From a phage: DNA of 64,000 nucleotides. The position numbers and the translations under genes were made by a program. Under the pieces are notes generated by a model. The model was not told the DNA's origin. It did no database searches and saw only the letters and a program-made list of their open reading frames with translations. The DNA lies in NCBI GenBank assembly GCA_012401045.1, contig GCA_012401045.1_4704.2, one strand, 5' to 3'. Below are positions 110 to 63,363 of the stretch, piece by piece (the stretch's first letter is position 1; each line of letters begins with the position of its first letter).

Positions 110-1546
110 TTACTTTTTCGATGACGCTTTCTCAAGAATCTTGAAAAAGGTCATACCTATACCGACAACGGCCGCGGTTATGCTCGCAGCGGCTTTCCAA
201 ACATCGACGTTACGTTGACGTCGCGCTTCTTCCGCTTCACGTTGTCTTTTTGCCTCTTCATCACGTCGACGTATCTCAGCAGCAAACTCGTCGTGCTTAC
301 GTTTGGATTCTTCGTCTCGACGACGAAGTTCAGCGACGAATTCTTCATGTTTGCGTTTAGCCTCGTCGTCACGACGTTTTAAATCAGCTTGATAATCTTC
401 GTGTATTTGTCTACGTAGATCATCTTGACGCTTCATTTCGGCTTGGTGTTGTTCCATCCTACGTTTTTGTTCGTCTTTAAGCTGATCGAGTTCGGCTTTA
501 TGTTGTTCATCGCGCAGCTTTGCGTCGGCGCGATGCGCCTCATGCATCTGTGAGATAACTGCCTTGTGTTCATCCGCCATACGTCGCATTTCAGCCATCA
601 CCCCTTTAAGGGTTTCTTCTGATGCCTTACGTTCGTAGCTACGTTGGTCGAAATCATTTTTGTAGGCTTCTTTTTGGATGGGGTCGCGCCAATGCAATGC
701 CGATTCACGTGTCGGAAAAACATTGTACTTCCACATCTCTTTTTCCAAATCTTCGACCGGTACGAAGATGGAGTCATTATTCCCGAAGGTAACCAACATG
801 CCTGGCGCGCCTGCTCCATTCGTTGGTTTTATTTCGAACGCTTTCCCCAACACGTTAACCCATAAGCTATACGGATTATGAAAGTCGGGCGGCGTCCAAT
901 GGATAGTGAGTTGCGTTCCGAGAATCCGGAAACCCTCTGTTTTTCCCGTCAAGCTCCGCGCGCACGTTGCGATGTAGGGGTGATCAATCCCTTTCGTAAC
1001 GTGGTCTGCGCTTTTGTATTCTCCTTTAACTTTTACGATTGCCACGTTGATTTGCGCGACATAAGCGGGTTGATTAAAGTTCAACGTGTTGAGGTCAATT
1101 TGACATATTTCATCCAGCGTATCGTACCAGTCTTGCTGGTCTAATAGACGCGGCATTTTCTCTGTGTTAACAATACGACGGATATGCGGTTTCCTTATCG
1201 CGTAACCTGTACCGTTTTTAACACGGAGTATATCCCGACGTCTACCCGCGTAGACGAAGTTTCTGAATGCACCATTCGCATTAGATACGTCATGGCTGTC
1301 AACTATTACAGGACTACGAAATTTTGAACGTCGTACGATCCTGAATGTATTGCCGTCCTCAACCCTACCAGGAATGTACTGGAACATATTGTCGGAGGTG
1401 ATAACCAACACGGTATGGCCAGATTCATTAATACATGCCCATCCTAATTCCAGGTCATATAACGGTTCAGCATAACCGTCAATGCGATAAGCGTGCGTAC
1501 CATCCCACGGTTCGAACGCGGTATCACATATTGGCATGGAGGGCAT
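110..1546 (-). CDS. tail-anchored coiled-coil protein with C-terminal tandem basic/acidic repeats and one predicted C-terminal TM helix
   Basis: 480-aa track ORF (110..1552) begins at TTG; first ATG is codon 3 with GGAGG 6 nt upstream. Repeated RRRDEE-[AS]KRKH-[DE]EF-[AV]AE units, then hydrophobic AAASITAAVVGIGMTFF. Confidence 0.7.
   Translation of the reverse strand: MPSMPICDTAFEPWDGTHAYRIDGYAEPLYDLELGWACINESGHTVLVITSDNMFQYIPGRVEDGNTFRIVRRSKFRSPVIVDSHDVSNANGAFRNFVYAGRRRDILRVKNGTGYAIRKPHIRRIVNTEKMPRLLDQQDWYDTLDEICQIDLNTLNFNQPAYVAQINVAIVKVKGEYKSADHVTKGIDHPYIATCARSLTGKTEGFRILGTQLTIHWTPPDFHNPYSLWVNVLGKAFEIKPTNGAGAPGMLVTFGNNDSIFVPVEDLEKEMWKYNVFPTRESALHWRDPIQKEAYKNDFDQRSYERKASEETLKGVMAEMRRMADEHKAVISQMHEAHRADAKLRDEQHKAELDQLKDEQKRRMEQHQAEMKRQDDLRRQIHEDYQADLKRRDDEAKRKHEEFVAELRRRDEESKRKHDEFAAEIRRRDEEAKRQREAEEARRQRNVDVWKAAASITAAVVGIGMTFFKILEKASSKK
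200..400 (-). repeat. in-frame tandem DNA repeats encoding the RRRDEE-KRKH-EEF coiled-coil units of 110..1546
   Basis: Repeated cgacg/ttcttc-rich ~45-60-nt units visible on the plus strand. Confidence 0.5.
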
Positions 1547-1695
1547 CGTCAACCTCCATCAGATTGAAAACTATCACGCATAATACATTTCCCTTTTCTT
1601 GTTCTTATCGAGCCGACAGCCGACGGTTTCAGCATCGTTCCTAGCGCGAGAACGACCTTACGTGTTGTCTATGCCTTATTCATCGCAGGCGTCTG

Positions 1696-1715
1696 TCACC
1701 TAGGTAATGTAAGCG
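1696..1715 (-). promoter_or_regulatory. third, partial copy of promoter-like motif (TCACCTAGGTAATGTAAGCG)
   Basis: Shares the TCACCTAGGTAATGTA core; upstream of 110..1546. Confidence 0.3.
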
Positions 1716-1745
1716 TCAAATTTTTTCTATTCGCAACGATAAACG

Positions 1746-1794
1746 GCATAGAAACCTCCCCCAACCCTTGCGGGCTGAGGGAGGCTGACTTATG
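1746..1794 (-). terminator. palindromic GC-rich hairpin (GCATA-CCTCCC...GGGAGG-TATG family) downstream of capsid gene
   Basis: Inverted repeat with polypyrimidine/polypurine arms, extended by GCATA/TATG flanks. Confidence 0.55.
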
Positions 1795-4915: not shown

Positions 4916-6526
4916 ATGGACCCAAAACAGATAGCCATTAAGATTATTACGTTACTGTTTCGTAATGCACAATTGAACCATCCCGATCCCAGTACGATCG
5001 AACATGTTAAATCCGTCTTAGATAAAGTCGAACCCCCGAAAAACCATCTCGCTACAGACGTAGATAGAGAGGTTTTCAACAACCTGATGAATACCATTCA
5101 TTGGATGTTGGAACAACCATTATCGGAACCTTTCGATAAACAACAGTTGTTACAAAGGATACGTTTGGATTGCCTTGAACAAAGCAATCTTTACGAGATT
5201 CTTGCCGACGGACTGTACGATATCGAAGACGACGCTCATATCAGTAAGGTCTGTTCACTCTATTACAACGAATTACGTAATCTGATTACCCGTCGTCGTG
5301 TTTTCGAAACCTTTAGAAACACGTACATGGATATCAGTAACGGGCGACTTGGGGATAAAGAATTTTTCGATGCAATGGCGAATCTGAAATTATCGCTAGA
5401 CAGTATCGAAATGGATACCGAAAATCCCGAAGAGATGTCGTGTATGATTGACGGCTTTATCGCTGACAGCGAAGACGATATCGAGAAAGTCGAACGTATG
5501 TTCGTCAAAGCGATGGAACGTAACAGTCCTGAAGGTGGATTTGTAACCGGCTGGCAAGGCTTTAATAAAATGTTGGGGTCGGTCGGCGTTTTACGTCGCG
5601 GTACCTTAGGACTGATCGGTGCAATGCAGCACCGGAACAAGTCAGGCGTGTTGTTAAAACTGTTCACACATCTGGCATTGTACAACAAACCCCATTTCTT
5701 TTTCCCGGAGCGAGCAAAGAAAGCATTACTGATTCATTTGTCGACAGAAAACGAAGTGGAAGAAAACACGCTTCAGATATACAAGAACATGCGAGAACAG
5801 GAAACAGGCGAATATGTCGATATTCGTAAGATTGACCCTCGCGAGGCATCACGTTATGTGTTGAAGGTGTTCAACGATGCGGGTTTCTCTGTTTGTATGC
5901 GTCGTGTTGATGGGATGAGTTATAAACAACTCGCTAATCTCATCGACCATTTCGAACGCATGGGTTATGAAGTCATGGCGTTGTTCATTGACTATCTGAA
6001 AATGTTCTCATCGGAAGGGTTGGATAGAAATGGACCGACCGGCGCATGGCTCCAAGAACTCTTCAACAAAGTACGTAACCTCTGCAGCGTCAAACGTATT
6101 TTAGGTATGACTGTACACCAGCTGTCATCCGATGCGAAGATGCGTGCGCGTGATGGTAACGATGAAGAGTTTGTTGACCAGGTCGCAGGTTTAAGTTACT
6201 GGGATGGTTGTAAAGGGATCGACCGTGAGATTGACCTTGAAGTGATTGTTGATATCGTTAAGGAGCCGGGCAAACGTCAAAGCTGGCAGGTCTTTGCGTT
6301 AGGGAAAGACCGTCAACCGGATAACGGTTCAACGAAACCTGAAGACAAACATTTCGCGATGCCATTCCAAACCATCGGGATGCTTCCTGATGATTACGGT
6401 AAGAAAGCAGTATATTGCCGCAAGGTTGGCGGACAACCTGTCTCCGAGGGAGGTAAAGGTCCGTGGAACAAGTTCGATGAAAACGCAGCACCGAGTAATG
6501 AATTACAATTTGATTTAGAATTTTAA
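4916..6526 (+). CDS. hypothetical protein (536 aa)
   Basis: Track ORF 4832..6526 starts at GTG inside the divergent gene; first ATG at 4916 has GAAAGGA RBS 8 nt upstream. Ends at a bidirectional terminator. Confidence 0.7.
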   Translation: MDPKQIAIKIITLLFRNAQLNHPDPSTIEHVKSVLDKVEPPKNHLATDVDREVFNNLMNTIHWMLEQPLSEPFDKQQLLQRIRLDCLEQSNLYEILADGLYDIEDDAHISKVCSLYYNELRNLITRRRVFETFRNTYMDISNGRLGDKEFFDAMANLKLSLDSIEMDTENPEEMSCMIDGFIADSEDDIEKVERMFVKAMERNSPEGGFVTGWQGFNKMLGSVGVLRRGTLGLIGAMQHRNKSGVLLKLFTHLALYNKPHFFFPERAKKALLIHLSTENEVEENTLQIYKNMREQETGEYVDIRKIDPREASRYVLKVFNDAGFSVCMRRVDGMSYKQLANLIDHFERMGYEVMALFIDYLKMFSSEGLDRNGPTGAWLQELFNKVRNLCSVKRILGMTVHQLSSDAKMRARDGNDEEFVDQVAGLSYWDGCKGIDREIDLEVIVDIVKEPGKRQSWQVFALGKDRQPDNGSTKPEDKHFAMPFQTIGMLPDDYGKKAVYCRKVGGQPVSEGGKGPWNKFDENAAPSNELQFDLEF

Positions 6527-6530
6527 ACGC

Positions 6531-6590
6531 AAAAAAAAAAAAAGATTGTACGGTTCCCTCCTCCAACCCGTAAGGGAAGGAGGAAGGTTT
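6531..6590. terminator. bidirectional intrinsic terminator (A13 run plus CCCTCCTCC...GGAGGAAGG hairpin) between convergent genes
   Basis: Hairpin flanked by a 13-nt A run on plus strand (T run for minus-strand transcripts). Confidence 0.7.
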
Positions 6591-6603: not shown

Positions 6604-6930
6604 TTAACTTATTGTCATGAATTCATTAGGTGAAAATTTCCAGCCGTTCTCAGTGAGAAGCGTGTTGAGTTTTGCCGCAACGATAAGCCATGCATGCATG
6701 GCCGTTACATCGTATTGGCGATTCACTCGACGTTGGTTTTCGATATTGATTTGCTCCTGTTCAGTGATGTTTGGATAAAGTGCGATAGCGCTAGGTTTAC
6801 CCAGCGCGCTAGTCATCACCGCCGTACATTCACTGATAATGTTGTTTAAGTGGTAGTTATACACCGTTCCACGCATGACGCGATGACGGCATTCGATAAT
6901 AGCGTCGTAAATGATTTCTCGAGTAATCAT
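6604..6930 (-). CDS. hypothetical protein (108 aa)
   Basis: ATG-initiated ORF immediately upstream of the hairpin plus T-run terminator. Confidence 0.6.
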   Translation of the reverse strand: MITREIIYDAIIECRHRVMRGTVYNYHLNNIISECTAVMTSALGKPSAIALYPNITEQEQINIENQRRVNRQYDVTAMHAWLIVAAKLNTLLTENGWKFSPNEFMTIS

Positions 6931-6936
6931 GATAAT

Positions 6937-7338
6937 TTAAAACATACGGTCGTTTTTAGCACGGGCGTCCATTACCAGATCGTAGATGCCTGCGGTTCGT
7001 AAGCACTCTTCGTAGTAACGATGTGTGCCTTCCTCAGCCATCCACGATAACCCTCGGCTATCCGCAACGATAACCAGTTTGTTATTGTTGAACGCACACA
7101 CCACACGGTAGGTCGCGTTGTTATTCGGATCGCGAGTGATAAGTTCGTAAACGCCGTTAACAGGTTTACTGAATTCGCCGTTTAACGGAACGAGTTCGGT
7201 AGTACCTTCAGCAAACGTTACGTTGATCGGTGATGGGTCTTTAGCGATAACAGTATATTCCACATTGTGTTCTTTACTGGTCATAATACCGAAGTAAGAA
7301 CTCACAGGGGAACGCGGTACACTAAGAATATTAAACAT
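6937..7338 (-). CDS. hypothetical protein (133 aa)
   Basis: ATG start with AAGAGG RBS; tightly packed with neighbours. Confidence 0.65.
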   Translation of the reverse strand: MFNILSVPRSPVSSYFGIMTSKEHNVEYTVIAKDPSPINVTFAEGTTELVPLNGEFSKPVNGVYELITRDPNNNATYRVVCAFNNNKLVIVADSRGLSWMAEEGTHRYYEECLRTAGIYDLVMDARAKNDRMF

Positions 7339-7407
7339 AAATGTTGTCCTCTTAATTGGATTTAGATTGTTGGGTATGTGATTGGAAATGAAAACGTTGT
7401 TTCGGTT

Positions 7408-7977
7408 TTAGACGATGAGTGACCAGGTGGTAAGCACCCCACTTGCGAATTCGAGCTTAAGACGTTTACCGATAAGTTGTTGCTGGATCATCTTCTCGGT
7501 GATACGTCGATCATGCTGAACCGCTTTATCAAACGCTTCTTTCGCTTCAGCTTGGTAGAAGTTCGTTTCTTCGTTTTCGTCGATCTCTTCGAGAGCATCG
7601 TCGTCGATGTCAGCAAGTTTCACTCGACCGTTTTCATCAGGTTGTTCTGCAGGTTCATTGTCATACGGCGTGTCTTTTGTTGGTGCGACACGATGTTGCA
7701 ACTCGACCTGCGTTAACATGATCTCCATCTCACCATCGATAGGAATGATTTCATCGGCGCTGCCGTTTTCGGTCAGCTCGCGACTTTCCAGTAATGTCGT
7801 CGTAACAGAGAACACCTCTTCAACAGGAACCTCATCATCGTCGATGGTGTTAACCGTGTTGCTGGTAACTTCAGCAACAACCATCAAATCAAATGCGTGA
7901 GGGTCACCTGGCATTTTGATTCCTGGAAGTTTGTTGAGGTACCAAGGATCAAGAATCATGATTTCTGGATTAAACAT
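7408..7977 (-). CDS. hypothetical acidic protein (189 aa)
   Basis: ATG start with AAAGG RBS; D/E-rich central region. Confidence 0.65.
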   Translation of the reverse strand: MFNPEIMILDPWYLNKLPGIKMPGDPHAFDLMVVAEVTSNTVNTIDDDEVPVEEVFSVTTTLLESRELTENGSADEIIPIDGEMEIMLTQVELQHRVAPTKDTPYDNEPAEQPDENGRVKLADIDDDALEEIDENEETNFYQAEAKEAFDKAVQHDRRITEKMIQQQLIGKRLKLEFASGVLTTWSLIV

Positions 7978-8053
7978 CGTATTTTACCTTTCTATGTTAG
8001 GTGGATTTCGGATAGAAGAATCAATGCATAAACTAATTTAAGTTTGTTAAGGT

Positions 8054-8956
8054 TTACTTAGCCTTTGAGTTATACGGACTAACATGTTGTTGTACTCGTT
8101 GGATTGTATCGTAGTACGGGTTAAGTTGATTGAACATGTTGTTGTGTGGGTGATAGCCATATGGCGCATTTTGCCTTGTTGGTGAGAAACCTTGTTGAGA
8201 AGGACGGTTTGAATTAACCGCGAGTACGTAGTAAACCAAATTTTGGCGGTCGAACGTTCCTTCGTTTTTGAAGGTGTCGGCGTAGGCGCTTACCGCTGGA
8301 GCGAGCCTATCACCATCGGTTGTAATGATTGTGCCATCGGGATAAACTTCCCGAACGACGCACCATGTTCCGATGAGAACATCTTTGGGTGATGTATTAC
8401 CGTATCCGGTTGTAACGGTAAGGTAAGTATCGAACCCTTCAGAACAACAAGGATGACGATAGATGGGTCCTGTCATTTCCAGTCTATCGGTGTCACCGCA
8501 TTTCTCTATTGAGAGCGATGATGTGTCGGTTTTGAAATTGTCAAATTCTTTCTTTAAGTCGATTACGGGTTCTTTCGTATAGTACTTCTTGATTGCTTTG
8601 ACGTAAAGATCGGGAACGGTTGTCAGCAATCCGTTATACCTGATTCTCAGGTTTTCGAGTAATCCAAAGATGCTCGCGCATGCCTGTTCGCGAGGTTTTG
8701 TAAGATAAGAGATCCCCCCAGGAACGCTGGGATCTTTGAGAAAGAAGATTGCGTTATTGTCGTTGTGCGATGCGTTGAAGAAAACGATTGATTCGATATA
8801 TACGGAGCATAGGCTGTCGTTGGCGTCGTCAGATAACACCCAGATGCACTCATCGGTCGTCTTGTTTAAAAGTTCTGTTTTGTCGACCAAACGTTGTTTC
8901 ATTGCGAGGAAATGTGCCTGTTGTTCAGCGGATAATTCACGATAAATGGTGGTCAT
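8054..8956 (-). CDS. hypothetical protein (300 aa), paralog of 9042..9824
   Basis: AAGGAG RBS; shares [YF]D[RT]YLT[IV]T-G and RE[IV]YPDG-I[VI]T blocks with the adjacent gene. Confidence 0.7.
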   Translation of the reverse strand: MTTIYRELSAEQQAHFLAMKQRLVDKTELLNKTTDECIWVLSDDANDSLCSVYIESIVFFNASHNDNNAIFFLKDPSVPGGISYLTKPREQACASIFGLLENLRIRYNGLLTTVPDLYVKAIKKYYTKEPVIDLKKEFDNFKTDTSSLSIEKCGDTDRLEMTGPIYRHPCCSEGFDTYLTVTTGYGNTSPKDVLIGTWCVVREVYPDGTIITTDGDRLAPAVSAYADTFKNEGTFDRQNLVYYVLAVNSNRPSQQGFSPTRQNAPYGYHPHNNMFNQLNPYYDTIQRVQQHVSPYNSKAK

Positions 8957-9041
8957 GTTGAGCTCCTTGATTACGATAAGGATGATTGCGGTTTTGTGGT
9001 GTTGGTAGGGCCCTAAACAAATGAACCCTACTAATATTAGG

Positions 9042-9824
9042 TTAATCGGGATCGGCGTAGAAATGGTGAGGATAGCCGGAGTACGATCCCGCGTTACCGG
9101 TTATGGATTCTTTCTGGGAATCGACGACGAGTGCATAGAACTGTCGGGAATTTGTTAGCGTTGAGAAATAAGAGGAAAGGACTTTTTCATTCAACGCATC
9201 GCAAGGTAGACAGGTGCGACCGCAAAACGTCACGATACGGCCGTCAGGATAGATCTCACGAATCATTCTCCACTCGCCAATATCGACTGGTGATGGCGCT
9301 GCTACACCACCTGTTATCGTTAAGTAACGATCGTACGTGGTATGGCATTCAGGATGAACGTAAATCGGTTGGGCATCAATACTATCGTTTTCTGTTTGAT
9401 CTTTATTCACGTATACCTCAAGGTAGATTGTTGGTAACCCGGTTAGAACGCCAGTGTCACGACGTTTTTTGGTAATCCGGGGACGGATATTATCGAGCAC
9501 GCCTTCCAGTTTTTCTGCGACTTCGTCAGCCGGTAATATATACCCGTATGTTGGTTCTGGGTCATCACCGTGGCTAAATAAGATACGACAGTCGTTTTTA
9601 TTAAATTCTATATCTTCAGGTGGGAAGATGATGACGCGAACCGTATGGCGTTCTGCGATATAAAATCCTTCAGGCCCCTCAGTTTTGGTAAGTGTAAAGG
9701 ACCAGGATGAATGATCTTCAAGTGACGTGCCTGCCAGGAAAAAGTCCGCCCGAATTGGTGCGTTCCATTTCGCGATCATATTGGCGTGACCAATAACGCC
9801 TAATTTTTGATAAATATCTGTCAT
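9042..9824 (-). CDS. hypothetical protein (260 aa), paralog of 8054..8956
   Basis: ATG with GAGG RBS; conserved promoter-like motif lies upstream; paralogy as above. Confidence 0.7.
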   Translation of the reverse strand: MTDIYQKLGVIGHANMIAKWNAPIRADFFLAGTSLEDHSSWSFTLTKTEGPEGFYIAERHTVRVIIFPPEDIEFNKNDCRILFSHGDDPEPTYGYILPADEVAEKLEGVLDNIRPRITKKRRDTGVLTGLPTIYLEVYVNKDQTENDSIDAQPIYVHPECHTTYDRYLTITGGVAAPSPVDIGEWRMIREIYPDGRIVTFCGRTCLPCDALNEKVLSSYFSTLTNSRQFYALVVDSQKESITGNAGSYSGYPHHFYADPD

Positions 9825-9858
9825 GATTGTATCCTCGGTTATTAAGAGAATTTACAAC

Positions 9859-9910
9859 GATAACAGTAACCGCTGTTATCACCTAGGTAATGTAGTCGCG
9901 AAATAAACTG
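9859..9910 (-). promoter_or_regulatory. conserved ~30-nt promoter-like motif (ATCACCTAGGTAATGTAGTCGCGAAATAAACTG) with adjacent palindrome GATAACAG-N6-CTGTTATC
   Basis: Near-identical copy at ~47084-47135 and partial copy at ~1696-1715, each upstream of a minus-strand gene start and downstream of a family hairpin. Confidence 0.4.
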
Positions 9911-9930
9911 GAGTAATGCGAAATAAGACA

Positions 9931-9975
9931 GCATAAGCCCTCTCCCAACCCGTAAGGGAAGGGAGAGGGAATATT
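9931..9975 (-). terminator. hairpin of the GCATA-CCCTCTCCC...GGGAGAGGG family
   Basis: Abuts stop of 9974..11341. Confidence 0.55.
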
Positions 9976-11341
9976 AAACGGTTGGACGAACGGTGTTGTC
10001 TTTTTCTGGTGCAAGCCATAACGTGACCGTACCATGGCATGTCCACTGTGGTTCACGTACAGAAGAACCTGCCATTGTAACAGCGCAATCGGTACGCATG
10101 ATAACCCCGTATGCTTCGCAGAGATTGTTATCTTGCATCCACACAACTTTAGCAGGCATGCCGGGATACAACATATCCATGTTTGCGTATTCCCACACCA
10201 ACTGCATTGTTCTACCGCGTAATCCAGCAGTATTACTTAATTCACGCCATCGGTTATCGGTTACGCGTCCCATCCCTTTCGCCACCTTCACGTTATCGCT
10301 ACGTTCTTCAGTTACGTACTCGCTAACGTTTACGGTACGACTGATTATCGTATCACCCCCTTTTGATAACGTCATTCCCTGACTCATCTGACTTGCCGAA
10401 ACAAAACGCCCACCCGCATTACCTAACAACGAAGCCGCGTTATTGATGTCGCTTACCGACGCCCCTCTCGTACATGCAATTTCCACGTATTTGTCACGAT
10501 TGATCCAGGTCTTGTCCATGCCCGGAAACATGTCGGCAGGATAGTTGTAAAAGATAGCCGTGCGCCGACCGTCAGAGAAACGGGTTTCGTCGTAGAGAGG
10601 ATAAATATACAGATACGGAGATTGATAATAACAACCGACATCCGCTGAATAAATACCGACCTGGTTCTGGATTTTGTCTACGAGATCCATTGCGTTGGTG
10701 CCGTGCGGAAGAATAAGCAACTTGAACAGGTTGTCGTTATTCGGTGCAACAATATCCACGCCCTGCATTTTGAACCCGGTGTCGGCTTCAACCGCAGAAA
10801 GTATCTTGCTGAATTCGAGCCGTAACACATCCAGCACTTTCGACCCGGTATAGTTTTCACCGGTTTCTGATTGCATGAAGCTTTCAAGAACAGGATCGAA
10901 CAGTTGAAATTGAAGATCGACCATTTGTTCGTAGTCTTTCTTCGAAGAATCGGTTGCGGTACGTTCGTCGTTAGCAGACATACGACTGTCTACGGTTGTT
11001 AAACAAACCGCTCGGTAGACGTAAGCTTGTGCGGCATCGTCTACGGTTTGGCGTTGTCCGCGCATCAGGCTGTACGCCTGCACGATGATGCGCATTTTAA
11101 GTTGTTGTTGGTACGGTAGAATGTATTTTCCGTAACTGCCGGGCGGGAACTTTACAGAGATATAGAGTTCATCTCCAGCGTTACGTTCATAGTCTCGATA
11201 CGTGTGGACTTGAGTCACTAAAGGAACAGACACCGTCATTGACGGCGTGATTAATTCCGCGGTGACTTTATACGCAACAGCAACTGCTTCCTGCGCAAAT
11301 GTACCGATATACCGTCCTAACGGCGTCTGTTTGTAATCCAT
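9974..11341 (-). CDS. hypothetical protein (455 aa), likely virion-associated
   Basis: Long ORF, stop abuts hairpin terminator; translationally coupled to upstream gene. Confidence 0.7.
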   Translation of the reverse strand: MDYKQTPLGRYIGTFAQEAVAVAYKVTAELITPSMTVSVPLVTQVHTYRDYERNAGDELYISVKFPPGSYGKYILPYQQQLKMRIIVQAYSLMRGQRQTVDDAAQAYVYRAVCLTTVDSRMSANDERTATDSSKKDYEQMVDLQFQLFDPVLESFMQSETGENYTGSKVLDVLRLEFSKILSAVEADTGFKMQGVDIVAPNNDNLFKLLILPHGTNAMDLVDKIQNQVGIYSADVGCYYQSPYLYIYPLYDETRFSDGRRTAIFYNYPADMFPGMDKTWINRDKYVEIACTRGASVSDINNAASLLGNAGGRFVSASQMSQGMTLSKGGDTIISRTVNVSEYVTEERSDNVKVAKGMGRVTDNRWRELSNTAGLRGRTMQLVWEYANMDMLYPGMPAKVVWMQDNNLCEAYGVIMRTDCAVTMAGSSVREPQWTCHGTVTLWLAPEKDNTVRPTV

Positions 11342-11343
11342 GT

Positions 11344-11949
11344 TTAACGACCCCGTTGCTGTTGTTGAATGATGAATTCTTCGATCTTCGTACCACGGAA
11401 TTCGCTGTGACGAACCGCTTGCAGTTGCTCTTCAACGGTTGGGCCTGCATTGAGACCACCACGACGTGCGCGGTTGATGCCGATTTTACGGCGCTGACCG
11501 ATTTCACGTAAACGTGAAGATAATCCGCTCATTTCGGTTGGGTCTTTAATGCGACCGCGTGCAACGTTCCACAGACCACCCATGAACTCTTCGAGAATAC
11601 GACTGGCTTCGAGAGACGGTACGCGTGCGTTAGGATCGTTTTCGAGATTGTATTTAACGTATTCCGTGTGTTCCAGAAGAAGCATGAACATCTTCATGGC
11701 GTTCACGTCAGGATTTGCAATACGCATAGGAACACCACGAGAATGTTTTTCAGCAGCCTGCGGTACGGTAAGCTGTGCGGGCACCTCTTCGTTCATGGCC
11801 ATATCGTCGATTTCTGCAACCCCTGAAGAGTAGACGCCGCTGACCTCATTGGTGTAATTGTCCACCATGAATTTACGGGGAATCCAGAATTCGAATTTAC
11901 GTTCAAATAGACGTTTGGTTGGGGTATCTTTAACGTGTTGTAGACTCAT
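11344..11949 (-). CDS. hypothetical protein (201 aa)
   Basis: ATG start overlaps upstream stop (ATGA-type coupling). Confidence 0.7.
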   Translation of the reverse strand: MSLQHVKDTPTKRLFERKFEFWIPRKFMVDNYTNEVSGVYSSGVAEIDDMAMNEEVPAQLTVPQAAEKHSRGVPMRIANPDVNAMKMFMLLLEHTEYVKYNLENDPNARVPSLEASRILEEFMGGLWNVARGRIKDPTEMSGLSSRLREIGQRRKIGINRARRGGLNAGPTVEEQLQAVRHSEFRGTKIEEFIIQQQQRGR

Positions 11950-13262
11950 GGTTCAATAGCTCCTGCTCGTAACAGCATAATAACGAACGGTGTGAAATAA
12001 TAACGATCCAGCGGAGAAAGCAACGGTATTGCGTCAACCATCTGTTTCAGTGCCGGATGGCTGATCGCTTTCTCATCGACCATATCACGTACCATACTCT
12101 CAATAATCGTCATTGGGGCTTGGTTGCGGTAGAAAGCCTCTGTGAAAACATAGTACGGATCGTCTGCTACCGATGGAAACAACGGAACGCCGTCATACTC
12201 CATCGATGTAAGGTTGGTCACCAACGGATTTGTCGGTGGTGTGTTTTCAGGTACAGCCAACTCTTTACCGACGTCTTCACCGAGCGACGTGGTCGCAGGC
12301 CACATACAGAATCGCGCCCCGCTAAAACGAATCCCACCTGCAGCCGGGTACTGATAGAAACGCTTTGTTGACAACAGTGTGAATTTCACCGTCAACCGCG
12401 CCTCGTCTTCCCGACGTCCGTCCATTACCCATTCAAAGACAGAAATCGCATTCGCTTCCTGGCTGTCGTCTACGTTAAGACGTCCGAAGTTCCATGAAGG
12501 TTTTCCTTCAAGCGACGACCATAATTTCGTAAACGCGTTAACACACCAGGGATCGTAGGTTGCCGCATCCTGACCAGGAACAAGTAGTGTGTTTAATTCA
12601 CGGCTGTAAAATTCGTGGTAATACGCATGACAAAGTCCCAGCGCACGACGGAGATAATCATACTTACGATTGTATTTCTCCGTTGCCATTACGGGATGTT
12701 TTCCGTGCTTCAACTGGTCTTGGTCGTACAGTGTATCCTCAACGATTTTCGCTTCCAGTTCGATAAGCTGTTTTTCGTCAAGAATACGCTGGAAGGAAAT
12801 ATCGCATTCGTAAGCCGGTGCTAAGCTAATGTTCTTCGGCGTGATTCGGGTGATCGTGTACACCGCGATACGATGATCGAGACCGGAGATTAACAGCATG
12901 TTACCTAAAAGAGGAACCGATACCGCCGGAAGTATACACGTACCCTCGGATTGAAAACGTGCGGTCCCGTTGTCGTACGATGGCGTCAATGACGACATTA
13001 ACTTGATAGGGTAATGTCTGATGCGACGGTACTGCTGTTCAGCGATATCGCGGTTAGCTTGAAAACTGCTTTGTTCATCATCGCGACCGAGAATCTGTTC
13101 GTAATAATCACATTCTACGGAATAACCGGATGCGTAATTCACTAACCCGATTTGACTATTGTATTGCTCATCCACCACCGCAGAACGATAAACATCGTCG
13201 CGAGCCTTCGCGGGTTGTTGGGGGTTGATGATGGGTTTCGCGGGCTTCTTAGCGAGCGCCAT
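11946..13262 (-). CDS. hypothetical protein (438 aa)
   Basis: Long ORF, overlaps neighbours by a few nt (operon-like packing). Confidence 0.7.
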   Translation of the reverse strand: MALAKKPAKPIINPQQPAKARDDVYRSAVVDEQYNSQIGLVNYASGYSVECDYYEQILGRDDEQSSFQANRDIAEQQYRRIRHYPIKLMSSLTPSYDNGTARFQSEGTCILPAVSVPLLGNMLLISGLDHRIAVYTITRITPKNISLAPAYECDISFQRILDEKQLIELEAKIVEDTLYDQDQLKHGKHPVMATEKYNRKYDYLRRALGLCHAYYHEFYSRELNTLLVPGQDAATYDPWCVNAFTKLWSSLEGKPSWNFGRLNVDDSQEANAISVFEWVMDGRREDEARLTVKFTLLSTKRFYQYPAAGGIRFSGARFCMWPATTSLGEDVGKELAVPENTPPTNPLVTNLTSMEYDGVPLFPSVADDPYYVFTEAFYRNQAPMTIIESMVRDMVDEKAISHPALKQMVDAIPLLSPLDRYYFTPFVIMLLRAGAIEP

Positions 13263-21161: not shown

Positions 21162-21209
21162 GCCATAAACCTTCCTCCAACCCAACAGGGAAGGAGGAAG
21201 GGATATGGT
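21162..21209 (-). terminator. hairpin of the CCTTCCTCC...GGAGGAAGG family
   Basis: Downstream of 21212..22501; two further short palindromes at ~21089-21110 and ~21117-21138 in the same spacer. Confidence 0.55.
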
Positions 21210-23867: not shown

Positions 23868-23913
23868 GCATAGAACCCTCTCCCAACCCGTCAGGGAAGG
23901 GAGAGGGGATATG
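23868..23913 (-). terminator. hairpin of the CCCTCTCCC...GGGAGAGGG family
   Basis: Downstream of the highly expressed gene 23930..25252. Confidence 0.55.
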
Positions 23914-32144: not shown

Positions 32145-32189
32145 GCATAACCCTCCTCCAACCCAACAGGGAAGGAGGAGGGAATATGC
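32145..32189. terminator. bidirectional hairpin terminator (CCCTCCTCC...GGAGGAGGG) between convergent genes
   Basis: Located between stop of 29136..32129 (+) and stop of 32192..34984 (-). Confidence 0.6.
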
Positions 32190-46610: not shown

Positions 46611-47036
46611 TTAATTCAGTGATGCATATAAGGCATAACGACTGTAGATCTCAACCGCCGGTCCGTTATGTGTTAACAGACCATCCTGGTTGTAATACTG
46701 GAAAAATGAATAACGTTTGTCGAAGTGATAAACAAAAGCGATGTCTTTGCCGTCAAAACCTGTGATGCGTGGTCTGTTTTTATCTAGCAATGCTTTGACT
46801 TTTAACAGTGTTGCCGCACGTGCTTTAACGTTAGGGATCAAGCCATCACAATCGATATAAACGGTGTAACCTGTTTCAGATGTTGCGACGGTTGTATTGC
46901 GATTGACGCGGAAGATTTTTGTTTCGTATGTACTATCTTCAAGAATTGGGTTTTGTTTTTCGTATTTTCGTTTACGTAGAAATTCTACAACGGTGATATA
47001 GTTAGCGGTAATATGCCCGGTTATTGCTTGTAACAT
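46611..47036 (-). CDS. hypothetical protein (141 aa)
   Basis: AAGGA RBS; conserved promoter-like motif ~70-100 nt upstream. Confidence 0.65.
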   Translation of the reverse strand: MLQAITGHITANYITVVEFLRKRKYEKQNPILEDSTYETKIFRVNRNTTVATSETGYTVYIDCDGLIPNVKARAATLLKVKALLDKNRPRITGFDGKDIAFVYHFDKRYSFFQYYNQDGLLTHNGPAVEIYSRYALYASLN

Positions 47037-47083
47037 CTCGACATCCTTTTATATTGGATTGATTGCAATTGTCTTAAATAGAT

Positions 47084-47135
47084 GATAAGATATTTTGCTC
47101 TTATCACTAAGGTAATGTAGTCGCGAAATAAACTG
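47084..47135 (-). promoter_or_regulatory. second copy of conserved promoter-like motif with adjacent palindrome GATAAGA-N8-TCTTATC
   Basis: ATCACTAAGGTAATGTAGTCGCGAAATAAACTG; ~70-100 nt upstream of ATG of 46611..47036. Confidence 0.4.
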
Positions 47136-47156
47136 CGTTAACACGAAATAAAAACA

Positions 47157-47212
47157 GCATAGAACCCTCCTCCCCCATCCTTCAAGAGGACGGTGGGAAG
47201 AGGGAGAGATTA
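47157..47212 (-). terminator. hairpin of the CCCTCCTCCC...GGGAAGAGGG family
   Basis: Overlaps stop of 47210..47611; followed on minus strand by the conserved promoter-like motif. Confidence 0.5.
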
Positions 47213-57516: not shown

Positions 57517-58158
57517 TTAAATGTACTGCTTACCGCCCACGAAGGAAGTTAACCAGTTCCCGCTGACGAGTTGTGATACCCAGCCTGGAACGGCTCTACC
57601 ATTCTGGCTCATGATGTTACCACACCAACCAGGGAATCCGGGACGGATGTAATAGAAAGTTAAATTGTAGAGATGGCAATTCCATACCGCAACGTTATGT
57701 TTACCAGAAACCGCTTTAAAGACAAACGCGACAGGTAACGGAGACGATAACAATTCGGTCACAGGGACGGCTGACCAGTTCGCATTCGCGTTCCATGGTT
57801 GCCAGGTATGGCTGCGCGAGTCGCAATATACGTTACCGTTGTTACCGCGCCCACCCGCATTCCACCACAGCGACGGACTCATGTTCTTAAGTGAGGTAAA
57901 TTGCTGCGGTGGAATATTCGGAATGATAACAGGGTTGGTGCCTTGTCCATGTTTCTTTTCTTTTGCGTTCACATAGCCGTTTATCGATTCGAGGTATTTG
58001 GTACCAGGATAATTGTTCTGGACTTGTGTCGCAATATCACGAACGTCGAACGTCCAGCAGATCATGGTGTTGTAGTAAGCATCGGTGTTGTCGTACCATG
58101 CGTTACCATCTTGTAAACGTGCACCACTATTCGGTGTTTTATCTGTGCTTATAGCCAT
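57517..58158 (-). CDS. hypothetical protein (213 aa), paralog of 58261..58917; fibre-module accessory protein
   Basis: Shares PGFPGW[AC]GN[IV]MSQNGRAVPGW[AV]SQLVSGNWLTSFVGGK C-terminus and HGQ...VPNIP block with neighbour. Confidence 0.65.
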   Translation of the reverse strand: MAISTDKTPNSGARLQDGNAWYDNTDAYYNTMICWTFDVRDIATQVQNNYPGTKYLESINGYVNAKEKKHGQGTNPVIIPNIPPQQFTSLKNMSPSLWWNAGGRGNNGNVYCDSRSHTWQPWNANANWSAVPVTELLSSPLPVAFVFKAVSGKHNVAVWNCHLYNLTFYYIRPGFPGWCGNIMSQNGRAVPGWVSQLVSGNWLTSFVGGKQYI

Positions 58159-58260
58159 GGTGTTGTCCTATACGTTGGTGGTTGAGGTGGCGGATATCGG
58201 ATGCGTGTTGTCGTCAGGTAATACATACAGAAACGCCCACTGATAAAACAGCAGCTTCTT

Positions 58261-58917
58261 TTAAATTGAATTTAGATATCGCTTACCACCAACAAACGAC
58301 GTCAACCAGTTCCCTGAAACAAGCTGCGAAGCCCAGCCAGGCACTGCCCTACCGTTCTGACTCATCACGTTACCTGCCCATCCCGGAAAACCTGGTACCA
58401 TTTCGTATATATTGAACGATTCTATCTGGAACGAACCAAGCTTAACGTAGTGCGTTGTTGATCGGTACTTAAATTCAATAATAACAAAGAACGGATGTGA
58501 TTGTAAGTCGGACATTCTAATAGGTGCCGAGAGATTACCCGCCGACCATGGTTTCCACGTATGCTTACGGCTATCACAGTCAATATTACCCATTGAACCG
58601 TTAGCTGACGCGTTCCAGAATAGCTTATAGTCATACGCGGCGACATCGCCACTCCATCCTTGGAGAGGTATATTTGGTACATATACCCCGTTATTCCATT
58701 GTCCGTGTTGAATTTCTTCAGCATCGCCATGCCCAGAGACATATTCTAAGTACGCGTTTGGGTGTCTAGCGACGACTTCTCGCGCAAAAGAACGCAAGTC
58801 AAAAAGATGGGCGACAATGCTGTTATTATAAGCCACTCTCCAGCCGGGATCACGCCACCCTAATTTGCCGTCAGCGTGCCTTCTAGACGTGAACCCTATA
58901 GTTCGCGCTATTGCCAT
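58261..58917 (-). CDS. hypothetical protein (~218 aa), paralog of 57517..58158
   Basis: Track ORF extends to 58968 inside a hairpin; internal ATG (codon 18) has GAGG RBS and aligns with the paralog N-terminus (MAI...). Confidence 0.6.
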   Translation of the reverse strand: MAIARTIGFTSRRHADGKLGWRDPGWRVAYNNSIVAHLFDLRSFAREVVARHPNAYLEYVSGHGDAEEIQHGQWNNGVYVPNIPLQGWSGDVAAYDYKLFWNASANGSMGNIDCDSRKHTWKPWSAGNLSAPIRMSDLQSHPFFVIIEFKYRSTTHYVKLGSFQIESFNIYEMVPGFPGWAGNVMSQNGRAVPGWASQLVSGNWLTSFVGGKRYLNSI

Positions 58918-58963
58918 TTTATACCTCGTTCCTATTCTCAAAAAGGAAATTTCATACGATGAC

Positions 58964-59006
58964 GCCATAGCAGCTCCTCCAACCCGTCAGGGAAGGAGGA
59001 GCATAC
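58964..59006 (-). terminator. hairpin (GCTCCTCC aacccgtcaggg AAGGAGGAGC) downstream of lipoprotein gene
   Basis: Loop sequence identical or near-identical to other family members. Confidence 0.55.
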
Positions 59007-59565: not shown

Positions 59566-62500
59566 TTACTTTTTGAGCGCTTTAAGTTCTTCTTCCATCG
59601 CTTCCACTTTTGCCGTAAGCTTCTGTACTTGTTTGATTAATGGAACCACCAAACGTTCGTACATAACACCTTCGGCGACGAGTCCGTTAGAAGAAACGAT
59701 AGCGGGGTCATCTTCTTCGGTTGCATCACGCCAATGCACGTATTGTGGTGCGATCTCACCAACCTCTTCGGCAATCAACCCATACCAACCCCAATCCTTG
59801 TTGTCGGCTTCGCAGGTAGAACGATACCAGACAGGACGCATCTCCAATACTTTATCCGCTTGTTCATCCGTGATATTCTCGATATCTTTCTTATAGCGCC
59901 GCGACGACGTTGAACGAAACACATTGTTGATCCCAGCAGTAGGACTGATATACATATTAGCCCCGCTGGTTGTAGTGCTAATGTCCCATACCGCAAATCC
60001 GCCGTTACTCCCATTTCTCACGACCAACGTATTGGCAATAATATCCAGGTTATTGTTGTAACCGGTTAACTGGTTTTCGGTGACAAAATCGGATAAGTTA
60101 ACGGAGTAGTTCTTGCTGTTATAACAACGACGCCATCCTGGGCTGTTGGTGCTGCCATTATAGTTGTCGTAGCTATAAATGAACTCGGAGTTGGTTTTCG
60201 CACCACTGACGGAAGACGTGGTTGCGGTGGTAACACGGATAGTGTAGTTCGTCATCCCGAAGCTAACGACCTCGATAACCGCACCAGCCAGAGGAATAAT
60301 ACCACATTTGGTTTCACTGTCTGGGATGTATGCGCTATCGGCAGCAGCGAAGGAGCAACGTGCGACCCAGGCACGGGTATTGAATGCACCTTGGTTCTGT
60401 AATAACGTAATAAACGATGAGGTCGTAATCGAGCTGTTATTATCACCTGTGATCAACCAGCCGGTTGGACATGCGGTAGCACCAACGTTTTTCGCTGTTA
60501 GCGTGATGTTCTTCGATCCGTCGAAGGCTACGCCGCTGATGGTACGTGCAGTCTGTAGCTTCGTCGCCGTTGCCGCGTTCCCTGATGTGTTCTGGTTCCC
60601 TGCCGCATTAACACCAGGCAGATTGATGTTCGCACTACCGTCGAAAGACACCCCGCCAATGGTGCGGGCTGTTTTCAGTTTTGTCGCCGTGGCGGCATTA
60701 CCGGTTGTGTCTTGGTTACCGGTGGTGTTTACCCCAGGTAGATTGATATTTGCCGTTCCGTTAAATGAAACGCCGCCAATCGTCCTTGCCGTTTGCAACT
60801 TCGTTGCAGATGCCGCATTCCCCGTGGTGTTTTGGTTGCCTGTTGTATTCACACCCGGGATACTATCCTTAGATGTGTAGATCTGTGCCCATTCCGACCA
60901 TTTCGCATCGGTTGAATCACGACGTGAACGTAGGTAAGCTGGAGCGTGTGCACCCGAGGTACCTGACCATCCAATGAGGATTTCACCTTCGCCGACCGAT
61001 GAAGCGCCTTTAAGATGAACAACGTTACCGTAGGCTGTAGGGTATCCGTTATTGTACGCTTCATACATCTGGATACCCGTATTGCTGCCCTGGGTCGCAT
61101 TAGCTAAAGCGGTGACCCGTCCCTTGGAAGCGAGCACGTTAATGCTAAAGCTAATATCGGTTGTACCGTCAAAGGCGACCCCATTAATCCTCCGCGCTGT
61201 TTGGAGTTTCGTGGCAGTAGCCGCATTACCAGAGGTACTCTGATTGCCTGCTTTGTTCACACCTGGTAAATCAATGTTGGCGGTTCCATCAAAGGACACG
61301 CCCCCTATGGTTCTCGCCGTCTGAAGTTTTGTTGCTGAACCAGCGTTTCCGGAAGTGCTTTGATTACCCGCCGCGTTGACACCTGGTAGGTTAATGCTAG
61401 CAGAACCATCAAAAGAAACTCCACCGATCGTAATAGCTGTTCGCAACTTCGTGGCTGTCGCAGCGTTACCCGTCGTATTCTGATTACCAGCTGCATTGAC
61501 GCCAGGTAATGCGATATCAGCTGTGCCATCGAACGCGACACCTCCGATTTTACGGGCGGTTTGTAGCTTGGTTGCTGTAGCAGCATTACCGCTGGTATTT
61601 TGCGTACCGGCTTTATTTACACCAGGAAGATCGATGTTAGCAGAACCATCGAAGCTGACGCCACCTATCGTTCTTGCAGTAGCAAGTTTAGCGGCTGTAG
61701 CAGCGACGTTACCGACTTTTAACCATTCTCCCCATGGACCATCCACACCGTTCCATGATGCCGTTAAACTGCGCACGTATATGTTTCCTGTACGTACTGT
61801 GTAACGTTGTGTTCCACCGAATTGACCGGCTGGGAGCACTTCGATGTAACCTACAGCATTTGCTTCAGGGAAATTGTGGGCAGCATCGGCATTCGTTGAT
61901 GTTTGTTTGGACCAAATACCCACAGACGCTTCAACCGGACCGTAGGTATCCAGATTTGCATCGGTGGGGAGCTGTCCTCGAAAACGTCGGAATAATGAAG
62001 CCGATAACCCCAACGTTGTTTGCATCCCTTCAATGCTTGACTGCGATAGAAGCGCCCGAGCTGTCGACGTGATGGCCGCTAAAGCAACCTTATCCGTACC
62101 GGTAAAAAACGGGAATTTGTTTGCTGATGTTGCTAAACCTGAAAGGGCGGTCAGTAATGCGTTAAGGGGTTGTTTCCCGGCTAGCGCGTTAGTCACAGTC
62201 GTTGCAAAGTTTGGATCATTACCTAACGCTTGAGCTAACTCGTTAAGCGTATTTAGCGCTTCTGGAGACGAGTCGATCAGCGACGCGATAGCACGCATCA
62301 CAAATTCCGTGTTGGCGATCTGTTGACTGCTATCGTTCTCTGCAGCCGTAGGTGCTGCTGGGATACCGGTGAACACAGGGTTATTAAGATCCGCCTTAAG
62401 GGCGATGAGACGTCTAAGTGCTTCAACATCGACTTTCAGGTTTTCCCATCCGACGAGATAACCATCACCGGTTGTGTGATAACGGTTGTACCAAAAATCG

Positions 62501-63363
62501 CCATTAACGCCAAAATAAAATATTCCCTTCTCTTCGTATTGTGGGCCAGAACTGTTCCGTGATGAGCTAATGTATTTTATTTCGATAAGGCCGTTGAATA
62601 CCACTCCTGGGATTATTTTGTTGTCTCCAGCTGACTGTGATACCTGGTAAATCCCCGGGGTTGCGGCTTTAACCCACGTTAAGAATTCTGTTACTCCAGC
62701 GGTACCGCTGAAATTCTTAACGTCGGTAAGTATTGCCCCATAACCGAACATACCGGGTAGAGCCACTCGTCCGCTGGTACGGTCACGAATATCTGTTGCA
62801 ACAACAGGTAATTGTTTACGAACGGCATTAACCGCTTTAGGTGTGGCCGATTTTGTCTCGTCGTCGCTATCGGTTTCATTACTTAGAATAGTTAAACCGC
62901 GTGTAGCAGTAGTTGCATCAGGAAGAAATGCGTTATCCAACACCTTAAGCTGTACTGCACTCGTATTACTAACAACGACATGCACTTGACAGTTAAGAAC
63001 GCTGGTTGCGCCTTCGGTAGGCGTAGGCTTATATCTTTCTGGTGCACTGCAGACGGCAATCAGAACACCTTGGTCATCGTACAGACCGATCTCACGTACC
63101 CAGAACCCACCTTGACCAGCAGGAATAATACCCTCAACGATAATCCTGGTTGTGCTATCACCATCCGCATGGATATTAGAAACTTCCCCACGATAAACTT
63201 CGTGAACAAGCGCTGTTTGGCTGGCGGTCGGGGTTGGGATCGAGCCGTTACCATCACCAACGGCAAAGTGTGTGATTTTTAGTTTCTCACCGTCGGGAAG
63301 TAACGCGGCGGTGATACGTTCTGCTCCTTTATCGGTAACTACCGTTATATATGCTGTACTCAT
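59566..63363 (-). CDS. tail fibre protein (1265 aa) with tandem ~40-aa fibre repeats and C-terminal S74-type intramolecular chaperone domain
   Basis: N-terminus resembles tail-fibre N-terminal domains (ITHFAVGDGNG...WVREIGLYD). At least eight repeats of NAATATKLQTARTIGGVSFDGSANINLPGVN. C-terminal SSRRYKKDIENI...WYGLIAEEV matches the S74 chaperone domain pattern. Confidence 0.8.
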   Translation of the reverse strand: MSTAYITVVTDKGAERITAALLPDGEKLKITHFAVGDGNGSIPTPTASQTALVHEVYRGEVSNIHADGDSTTRIIVEGIIPAGQGGFWVREIGLYDDQGVLIAVCSAPERYKPTPTEGATSVLNCQVHVVVSNTSAVQLKVLDNAFLPDATTATRGLTILSNETDSDDETKSATPKAVNAVRKQLPVVATDIRDRTSGRVALPGMFGYGAILTDVKNFSGTAGVTEFLTWVKAATPGIYQVSQSAGDNKIIPGVVFNGLIEIKYISSSRNSSGPQYEEKGIFYFGVNGDFWYNRYHTTGDGYLVGWENLKVDVEALRRLIALKADLNNPVFTGIPAAPTAAENDSSQQIANTEFVMRAIASLIDSSPEALNTLNELAQALGNDPNFATTVTNALAGKQPLNALLTALSGLATSANKFPFFTGTDKVALAAITSTARALLSQSSIEGMQTTLGLSASLFRRFRGQLPTDANLDTYGPVEASVGIWSKQTSTNADAAHNFPEANAVGYIEVLPAGQFGGTQRYTVRTGNIYVRSLTASWNGVDGPWGEWLKVGNVAATAAKLATARTIGGVSFDGSANIDLPGVNKAGTQNTSGNAATATKLQTARKIGGVAFDGTADIALPGVNAAGNQNTTGNAATATKLRTAITIGGVSFDGSASINLPGVNAAGNQSTSGNAGSATKLQTARTIGGVSFDGTANIDLPGVNKAGNQSTSGNAATATKLQTARRINGVAFDGTTDISFSINVLASKGRVTALANATQGSNTGIQMYEAYNNGYPTAYGNVVHLKGASSVGEGEILIGWSGTSGAHAPAYLRSRRDSTDAKWSEWAQIYTSKDSIPGVNTTGNQNTTGNAASATKLQTARTIGGVSFNGTANINLPGVNTTGNQDTTGNAATATKLKTARTIGGVSFDGSANINLPGVNAAGNQNTSGNAATATKLQTARTISGVAFDGSKNITLTAKNVGATACPTGWLITGDNNSSITTSSFITLLQNQGAFNTRAWVARCSFAAADSAYIPDSETKCGIIPLAGAVIEVVSFGMTNYTIRVTTATTSSVSGAKTNSEFIYSYDNYNGSTNSPGWRRCYNSKNYSVNLSDFVTENQLTGYNNNLDIIANTLVVRNGSNGGFAVWDISTTTSGANMYISPTAGINNVFRSTSSRRYKKDIENITDEQADKVLEMRPVWYRSTCEADNKDWGWYGLIAEEVGEIAPQYVHWRDATEEDDPAIVSSNGLVAEGVMYERLVVPLIKQVQKLTAKVEAMEEELKALKK
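60470..61700 (-). repeat. tandem ~120-bp repeats encoding the 40-aa tail-fibre repeats, in two blocks split by a non-repeat insert
   Basis: Antisense track ORFs 60308..60880, 61052..61243 and 61496..61804 show the mirrored periodic peptide pattern. Confidence 0.7.

Follow-up and report, generated by a model that had tools for sequence, protein, structure and literature searches.

A tandem pair of two-domain paralogues in a variable slot behind the baseplate-hub gene of Goslar-like phages

The A/B gene pair and its protein family

Two adjacent open reading frames, A and B, were studied in a phage DNA of 64,000 nucleotides (contig GCA_012401045.1_4704.2 of NCBI GenBank assembly GCA_012401045.1); this whole stretch is referred to as the window. 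Gene A (8054..8956) encodes 300 amino acids and gene B (9042..9824) 260. Both lie on the minus strand, exactly where an earlier reading made from the letters of the DNA (the sequence-only reading) had placed them, with B first and A downstream of it. The region 7000..12000 is 97% identical, over 64% of its length, to the genome of Escherichia phage vB_EcoM_Goslar, a nucleus-forming jumbo phage of the Chimalliviridae. Each gene has a Shine-Dalgarno sequence on the minus strand, GAGGA at 9836..9832 for B and AAGGAG at 8968..8963 for A. The latter sits in the 85-nucleotide spacer between the genes (8957..9041, minus strand), and because no terminator is predicted in this spacer the two genes are probably co-transcribed. 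B is 100% identical to P0006, a protein from an E. coli assembly.

BLASTP aligned residues 1-269 of A to residues 1-256 of B with 25% identity (E = 2e-19). The Smith-Waterman score was 191, and 500 shuffles scored 33.9 ± 5.2 (z = 30). Compared separately, the C domains (z = 28) and the N domains (z = 7.5) are each related, and no relation is seen between the C-terminal tails (z = 0.5). The near full-length alignment and these z-scores establish that the paralogy is real. Two shared blocks, [YF]D[RT]YLT[IV]T-G and RE[IV]YPDG-I[VI]T, had first drawn attention to the pair. Both are indeed present in each protein, as FDTYLTVTTG and REVYPDGTIITT (REVYPDGTIIT) in A and as YDRYLTITGG and REIYPDGRIVT in B, where they form the core of the C domain. 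The sequence-only reading had also described the two genes as differing in length and termini, which holds for the lengths and the C-terminal tails; the N-termini share MTxIYxxL. That the similarity might be due to chance or low complexity would fit only the tails, which are compositionally biased. This explanation is already refuted by the end-to-end alignment, by the significance of each domain alone and by the 31 columns that are invariant across 21 family members, and we give it practically no credence. The supposed local duplication stands as paralogy and falls as a recent or genome-specific event, given the 25% identity and the recurrence of B followed by a second gene in many Goslar-like contigs. 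The comparison confirms A and B as true but ancient duplicates shared across the genus. A profile of the family matched just A and B in the window, with no third copy. We have named this group, defined in the present analysis, the Goslarvirus A/B/C/D two-domain family.

Alignments (A1 and A4) and AlphaFold models divide each protein into four parts: an N domain, a variable linker, a C domain and a disordered tail. The N domain is an alpha+beta domain of ~125-140 residues, is hypervariable and ends at LPTIYLEV or PDLYVKA. The C domain is beta-rich and conserved, with ~90 residues that include near-invariant Y, H, P, D, Y, L, G, W, R, E, D, G, T, G and P; the tail is rich in aromatic residues and asparagine. 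In B the N domain comprises residues ~1-140 (9405..9824) and contains the basic loop RPRITKKRR, and the C domain comprises residues ~151-238 (9111..9374), carries the cysteines of HPEC and CGRTCLPC and is followed by the disordered tail. In A the N domain (residues ~1-125, 8582..8956) is followed by a long linker, the conserved C domain (residues ~164-255, 8192..8467) and a Y/N/Q/P-rich tail (8057..8191). The basic loop and the His/Cys cluster HPEC...CGRTCLPC are found in B-type proteins and not in A. Both proteins have an acidic isoelectric point and no transmembrane or hydrophobic segment. The predicted local distance difference test (pLDDT) score of the AlphaFold model is 53.8 for A (N domain ~75) and 67.6 for B (N domain ~80, C domain ~69).

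Both A and B match the C-domain signature PIYxHP..[YF]DxYL[TS]..G...[IL]GxW..[IV]RE[IV]..DG.[IV].T..G. In alignment A3, which holds 25 sequences of the four types and of truncated forms, conservation reaches 90% or more at its Y, H, P, D, Y, L, G, V, G, W, R, E, G, T, G and P. About 20 positions of the C domain are invariant across types that are 25-30% identical to one another. Each domain also occurs by itself, the N domain in genes for 134 residues (P0035-P0041) that form their own conserved cluster and the C domain in a gene for 148 residues (L012); the existence of these genes indicates that the two domains are autonomous units.

Homologues are few. Word-seeded searches of 5.8 billion proteins located them in assemblies of E. 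coli, Shigella and Salmonella and in metagenomes, those of A (P0001-P0005) being 57-96% identical to it. All homologues with genomic context lie on Goslar-like contigs of 236-250 kb or on fragments thereof. When 1.84 billion representatives were searched exhaustively with a HMMER profile, just four family clusters appeared at the 50% level, corresponding to the A, B, C and D types; the remaining matches were a 40-residue B-type fragment and three proteins with E values from 1e-4 to 8e-4. A search for related loci with alignment A1 found one IMG/VR locus. No match to A or B was obtained by tblastn against 50,697 phage genomes. Searches of Pfam (A and B at E ≤ 1, 37 family members at E ≤ 10), PHROGs, NCBIfam and PADLOC with A, B and their relatives gave nothing consistent, the best PHROG having E = 0.28 and the Pfam matches being scattered, single and at E ≥ 0.01. 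Neither A nor B matched any PADLOC anti-phage defence protein or any NCBIfam named family, and a profile search of PDB sequences gave a single match at E = 1.8. We found no annotation of the family and no paper on it. Judged by these searches, it is a previously undescribed, genus-restricted orphan family limited to Goslar-like chimalliviruses. The genus Goslarvirus is itself abundant in enterobacterial assemblies, having grown from 1 to 237 genomes (PMC12768965).

Two of the three weak profile matches were inspected and are NHL-repeat proteins, which match an 18-residue motif repeatedly. The 18 residues that are best conserved in the C domain, [IV]RE[IV]YPDG.I.T..G, resemble the blade motif IRRI.PDG.V.T.AG of the NHL-repeat beta-propellers, and two multi-repeat NHL proteins reach E ~1e-4 by summing 5-7 repeats. 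In contrast to the several tandem repeats of ~40 residues in NHL proteins (PF01436), the A/B family has a single copy per protein; the rest of the C domain could not be aligned and no Pfam NHL match was found at E ≤ 10. An NHL-repeat identity was rejected, and the resemblance is probably that of a shared beta-hairpin and not one of membership.

Variation, exchange and selection in the slot

Goslar lacks the pair. By blastn, the segment without a Goslar counterpart runs from 8031 to 9819, with its edges 23 nucleotides past the stop codon of A and at codon 2 of B, and in the flanks an identity of 96-98% to Goslar reaches exactly to both edges. The Goslar annotation has at this slot just the 62-residue gp047 (6034-6222 of locus L001, NC_048170; 49584-49772 of the record). 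The gp047 reading frame passes through the conserved leader/promoter region and only its last 25 codons are gene-derived. These codons encode MTLLIRDPSEYENTR joined to YNHNQFGNNF, which are the 5′ and 3′ ends of a C-type member fused in frame. C-type members (P0026, P0033 and P0034) have 291-300 residues and the pattern MT[IL]LIRDPS.YE...RFGNNF. The remnant matches the C type both in its DNA, compared with locus L009, and in its protein sequence, in alignment A4. From the match to both ends it follows that Goslar once had a family member, which was lost by in-frame deletion; the gp047 annotation probably does not denote a real gene. Since Goslar is viable as an isolate without the pair, the family is dispensable under laboratory conditions.

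The slot lies between the baseplate-hub gene and the homologue of Goslar gp046. This position was confirmed in the window and in L002, L003, L006, L008 and L012, and the partial contigs L004, L005, L007, L009 and L010 are consistent with it. Goslar retains only the 25-codon remnant, and the window and L002 carry B and A. In L003 a gene for 210 residues precedes B and A (L004 and L005 end just upstream of B), and in L006, L007 and L008 the 210-residue gene is followed by an N-only gene (134 residues), B and a 277-residue A. L009 carries B and a C-type gene; L010 and L012 carry B, a D-type gene and the C-domain-only gene (148 residues), with or without the 210-residue gene in front. The slot is thus hypervariable, with 0 to 3 family members among otherwise near-identical phages, and forms a hot spot of variation in a neighbourhood that is otherwise 96-97% identical.

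The 210-residue gene between the hub gene and B (L003 5226-5858, L008 1745-2377, L012 3272-4003) is not in the window. By eye, a YRG...SFT...QREY pattern suggested an R-S-E ADP-ribosyltransferase; this assignment was dropped, with no support from Pfam, PHROG, NCBIfam, PADLOC or PDB sequences.

Variation also extends to the domains within each gene. The N domain of B occurs as two alleles that are 31-36% identical and its C domain as two alleles that are ~76-80% identical, and all four of the four combinations were observed. DNA similarity to the relatives, 95-97% in the flanks, collapses within the parts that encode the N domains and resumes at the domain junctions. In the window the identity breaks at 9368 (around residue 152 of B) and at 8491 (around residue 155 of A). 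This pattern shows recombination at the domain junctions, by which whole N-domain cassettes are swapped.

Ratios of non-synonymous to synonymous substitution (dN/dS) were estimated by the Nei-Gojobori method. They were 0.11-0.44 for A and 0.16-0.35 for B, compared with 0.00-0.06 for the homologues of the hub, the stopper, gp049, gp046 and gp044; most comparisons of flanking genes fall at 0.00-0.05. The gp045 homologue gave 0.12-0.21 in the closest comparisons, from just 3-5 non-synonymous changes. For the N domains, dN/dS was 0.36-0.64 in the comparisons with L002 and L006 where it could be estimated; the N domain of A gave 0.15 against the near-identical L003, and that of B was saturated against L003 and L006. 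The C domains gave 0.07-0.21. Against L002, the most divergent relative, dN was 0.19 for A and 0.09 for B, compared with ~0.02-0.03 for most flanking genes. The A/B proteins change much faster than their neighbours, about 10-fold, chiefly in the N domain. The high non-synonymous rates, together with the loss in Goslar and the truncated N-only and C-only derivatives, would also be seen if the pair were evolutionary debris, functionless duplicates drifting to loss as has happened in Goslar. We regard this as highly improbable, since in every carrier contig examined both reading frames are intact and have good ribosome-binding sites, dN/dS is below 1 everywhere and low in the C domains, some 20 C-domain positions have stayed invariant between distant types and the N-only genes are themselves conserved as a cluster. 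Purifying selection and the intact reading frames mark A and B as functional.

Signals and genes around the pair

Just upstream of B, on the minus strand, lies a baseplate-hub gene for 455 residues (9974..11341), the homologue of Goslar gp048. The Goslar virion preprint (bioRxiv 10.64898/2026.04.21.720040) assigns gp48 as a T4 gp27-like spike-cap/hub protein of the baseplate, and gp50 and gp51 as the stopper and the tail terminator. Five nucleotides past the stop codon of the hub gene is a GC-rich hairpin, CCCTCTCCCTTCCCTTACGGGTTGGGAGAGGG (9938..9969, minus strand), which the sequence-only reading had noted as a promoter-like motif upstream of the pair. The hairpin belongs to repeat families D1-D3 (7 copies), is part of the minimum-free-energy fold of the leader (z = −4.3) and lies in a region conserved in Goslar, where the RefSeq record marks one of the local hairpins as a putative terminator. 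The motif is thus real and conserved; it is primarily terminator-like, closing the hub gene, with a promoter role plausible beside it. Directly after the hairpin, TATG at 9932..9935 (minus strand, with the G at 9932) is a candidate late-type start, for the non-virion RNA polymerase, of the B-A transcript. The only conserved element of the phiKZ late promoter is a T-3ATG+1 core (PMC7598289), and it is this match that makes the promoter role plausible. A sigma-70 promoter scan found fewer sites than in shuffles, which fits a phage that uses its own RNA polymerases. The ChmC paper contains no transcript map of Goslar.

The position directly downstream of the spike-cap/hub gene raises the idea of a role at the baseplate or tail, where A and B, as associated accessory factors or assembly chaperones, would tune host range by acting on the spike/hub complex. 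Modular domain exchange is typical of receptor-binding proteins, and carriers are known from assemblies of E. coli, Shigella and Salmonella. The Goslar baseplate is nevertheless complete without A and B, a terminator-like hairpin stands between the hub gene and the pair, and the N alleles do not track host genus. Moreover the N-terminal part is variable and the C-terminal part constant, the reverse of most receptor-binding proteins. We consider such a role improbable.

The same hairpin family occurs between genes at no fewer than eight sites in the window (6555-6584, 9938-9969, 21172-21198, 23878-23905, 32151-32179, 47666-47697, 53866-53894 and 58974-59000), and it is the sole strongly over-represented 10- and 11-mer motif. 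At 9940, 21172, 23878, 47666 and 58974, TATG stands next to the hairpin where it faces the downstream gene. These hairpins look like shared terminators coupled to phiKZ-type late starts. TATG is often found on one or both sides of the hairpin, sometimes lengthening the palindrome. Variants of the hairpin, which takes the form CCCTCCTCCAACCC-loop-GGGAAGGAGGA and variants of it, also occur near 1.75 kb, 47.17 kb and 63.9 kb.

The leader of B holds two further elements. A conserved box, GTTTATTTCGCGACTACATTACCTAGGTGATAA (9876..9908, minus strand), has the core TACATTACCTAGGTGA in three window copies and belongs to repeat families D9 and D11. It was aligned three ways with 47040..47200 and 1640..1790, and an exact 15-mer is present at 9892 and 47117. 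This TACATTACCTAGG box may be a second promoter or an element of the 5′ untranslated region. An inverted repeat, GATAACAG-CGGTTA-CTGTTATC (9859..9880, minus strand), is unique in the window, listed as terminator-like and part of the minimum-free-energy fold. The alignment shows covariation, its 47-kb copy keeping the stem by a C/G to G/C swap. No Rfam family was found anywhere in the window.

Seen together, these signals form a composite cassette that occurs three times on the minus strand (9815-9975, 47040-47200 and 1640-1790), made up of the hairpin, [CT]TATGC, ~45 nucleotides and TACATTACCT[AT][GA]GTGA. The three copies stand upstream of B, of a gene for 141 residues (46611..47036) and of a gene for 480 residues (110..1552). 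Two of the three add a GATAA[CG]...[GC]TTATC stem with a compensatory base change. The cassette may be a second promoter class or a regulatory element of the 5′ untranslated region.

Downstream of A, homologues of Goslar gp046 (189 residues), gp045 (133 residues) and gp044 (108 residues) occupy 6604..7977 on the minus strand; they are co-oriented with the pair and conserved. All three are genus-specific. None has a Pfam or PHROG match, and the gp045 and gp046 homologues, searched by tblastn in the phage collection, matched Goslar and nothing else. Goslar gp44-47 are not mentioned in the preprint on electron cryomicroscopy and mass spectrometry of Goslar or in its supplements (bioRxiv 10.64898/2026.04.21.720040). 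As no terminator is predicted within the pair or after A, and the next conserved hairpin is at 6555..6584, B and A head a five-gene, genus-specific unit, B-A-gp046-gp045-gp044, with a conserved hairpin on either side. The hairpin at 6555..6584, between the end of the gp044 homologue and a convergent DnaB-like helicase gene, is the probable 3′ boundary of the unit.

Gene callers disagree on the start of the gp046 homologue (7408-7977), with 189 residues here and 168 in several relatives. The protein is very acidic (D/E-rich), and its dN/dS, within the range given above, denotes strong purifying selection. Upstream of this gene, 20-odd nucleotides past the stop codon of A, TTTATGC (containing TATG) at 8030-8036 on the minus strand falls at the exact left edge of the segment absent from Goslar. 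It marks a recombination boundary and may be a further internal start.

A comparable arrangement is seen in phiKZ, where gp101 is 25% identical to the 455-residue hub protein of the window (E = 1e-33). Behind this homologous hub gene phiKZ also has a run of small lineage-specific genes, gp102-gp110, which are mostly uncharacterised and include the macro-domain protein gp104. The region behind the hub therefore looks like a general chimallivirus accessory island. The phiKZ proteins are, however, unrelated to A and B by tblastn and profile search; their genes are shorter and carry no annotation as a family of paralogues.

Possible roles of the two proteins

We favour, with confidence that is evenly balanced, a reading in which A and B are dispensable, modular host-interaction or counter-defence proteins, the C domain being the constant module and the N domain the specificity module. 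A host-interaction role is favoured because the family is dispensable, confined to one genus and variable in copy number, exchanges one of its domains, shows elevated divergence and is separated from the hub gene by the hairpin. In this model A and B would be soluble, cytoplasmic accessory factors, transcribed from the TATG behind the hairpin and hence expressed as middle or late genes. A constant activity or a docking/oligomerisation surface would come from the conserved C domain, and specificity for a variable host (or competitor) target from the exchangeable N domain. The pair would then be a host-adaptation or counter-defence module and not a virion building block. A core structural role is unlikely. 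The sequence-only reading had left the choice between a structural and an accessory gene; accessory is now preferred and structural disfavoured, as Goslar is viable, and its virion was modelled from 28 proteins (bioRxiv 10.64898/2026.04.21.720040), without either gene.

The descriptive parts of the analysis (homology, slot, exchange and selection) are well supported; several points count against the functional reading built on them. No homology or fold match ties the family to any activity, so the host-interaction reading rests on evolutionary behaviour and dispensability. The structure models are just moderately confident (pLDDT 54 and 68). With dN/dS below 1 throughout, positive selection is not demonstrated, and host specificity is not evident, the N-allele types so far not sorting by host genus. 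Finally, the late structural neighbours on the same strand and the late-type candidate start would fit a packaged or virion-associated protein equally well.

That last point leads to the main alternative, in which A and B would be non-essential proteins packaged in the virion, ejected or internal like the internal proteins (IPs) of T-even phages: made late, taken up into the capsid or tail, injected together with the DNA and active from the outset of infection, directed for instance at a host nuclease or sensor. The pair does sit inside a late structural block, shares its strand and follows a TATG start of the late type, and chimalliviruses load many uncharacterised proteins for injection (bioRxiv 10.64898/2026.04.21.720040). 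Full-length and N-only members share the N-terminal peptide MT[DTK]IYxxL despite ~20% identity elsewhere in the N domain. This peptide resembles the capsid-targeting sequence of T4, an N-terminal stretch that the prohead protease removes from internal proteins. The shared peptide is, however, predicted by the models to be a beta-strand of the folded N domain and not a free signal; it is replaced by MTLLIRDPS in C-type members, is not followed by a conserved protease-type cleavage site and is found in no other open reading frame of the window. Nor did A, B or any of the 37 family members match the inner-body family PF12699. Packaging seems to us rather unlikely. As to purpose, it would be compatible with the host-interaction reading.

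The hyperplastic IP loci of T-even phages, of which T4 IPI*, an injected anti-restriction protein, is an example, are one of the closest known parallels. Like the A/B slot, they are dispensable, lie near structural genes, contain a variable number of fast-diverging genes between close relatives and feature a short conserved N-terminal peptide; their presumed purpose is host-specific counter-defence. Variable copy number and dispensability, being hallmarks of these loci, speak for packaging as well. There is no relation in sequence or fold. A and B are true paralogues with a conserved C domain and swapped N domains, have no cleavage site and belong to a nucleus-forming jumbo phage. The gp93-like/PF12699 families of phiKZ are likewise multi-copy, chimallivirus-specific paralogues among structural genes, and some of their members are injected. 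The A/B family differs in that none of its 37 members matches them (0/37) and in that it is absent from Goslar, whose inner-body set is complete.

Returning to the host-interaction reading, we propose a more specific form of it, tentatively and with clearly less confidence. The family may be an unrecognised cassette-type system in which a constant C-terminal beta-domain, serving as effector or for docking to the virion or phage nucleus, is combined by recombination with interchangeable N-terminal specificity domains and tandemly multiplied. If so, each Goslarvirus would have personalised inhibitors or decoys against host defences outside the phage nucleus, and the genes with an N or a C domain alone would be functional components of this cassette system. 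Otherwise the locus is one more orphan paralogue family in a jumbo phage. Tandem, fast-evolving, dispensable paralogues in a plastic region by structural genes are a known phenomenon in phage genomics; the protein family itself is new. Chimalliviruses shield their DNA in a protein nucleus, and host defences directed at RNA, at proteins or at entry would fall to accessory genes. Goslar is a natural null mutant, so the function of the pair is directly testable. The cassette boundaries are sharp, and with ~237 Goslarvirus genomes from bacterial assemblies (PMC12768965) N-domain alleles could be correlated with host genotype.

A second tandem pair of paralogues, for 213 residues (57517-58158) and 235 residues (58261-58968), is present on the minus strand of the window. 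The two share a near-identical C-terminus, PGFPGW.GN.MSQNGRAVPGW.SQLVSGNWLTSFVGGK.Y, and a 115-nucleotide DNA repeat of 73% identity, and they adjoin a gene for a repeat-rich, fibre-like protein of 1265 residues (59566..63363). This pair (57517..58968) lends some independent support to the paralogue expansion that the sequence-only reading had suggested for this genome.

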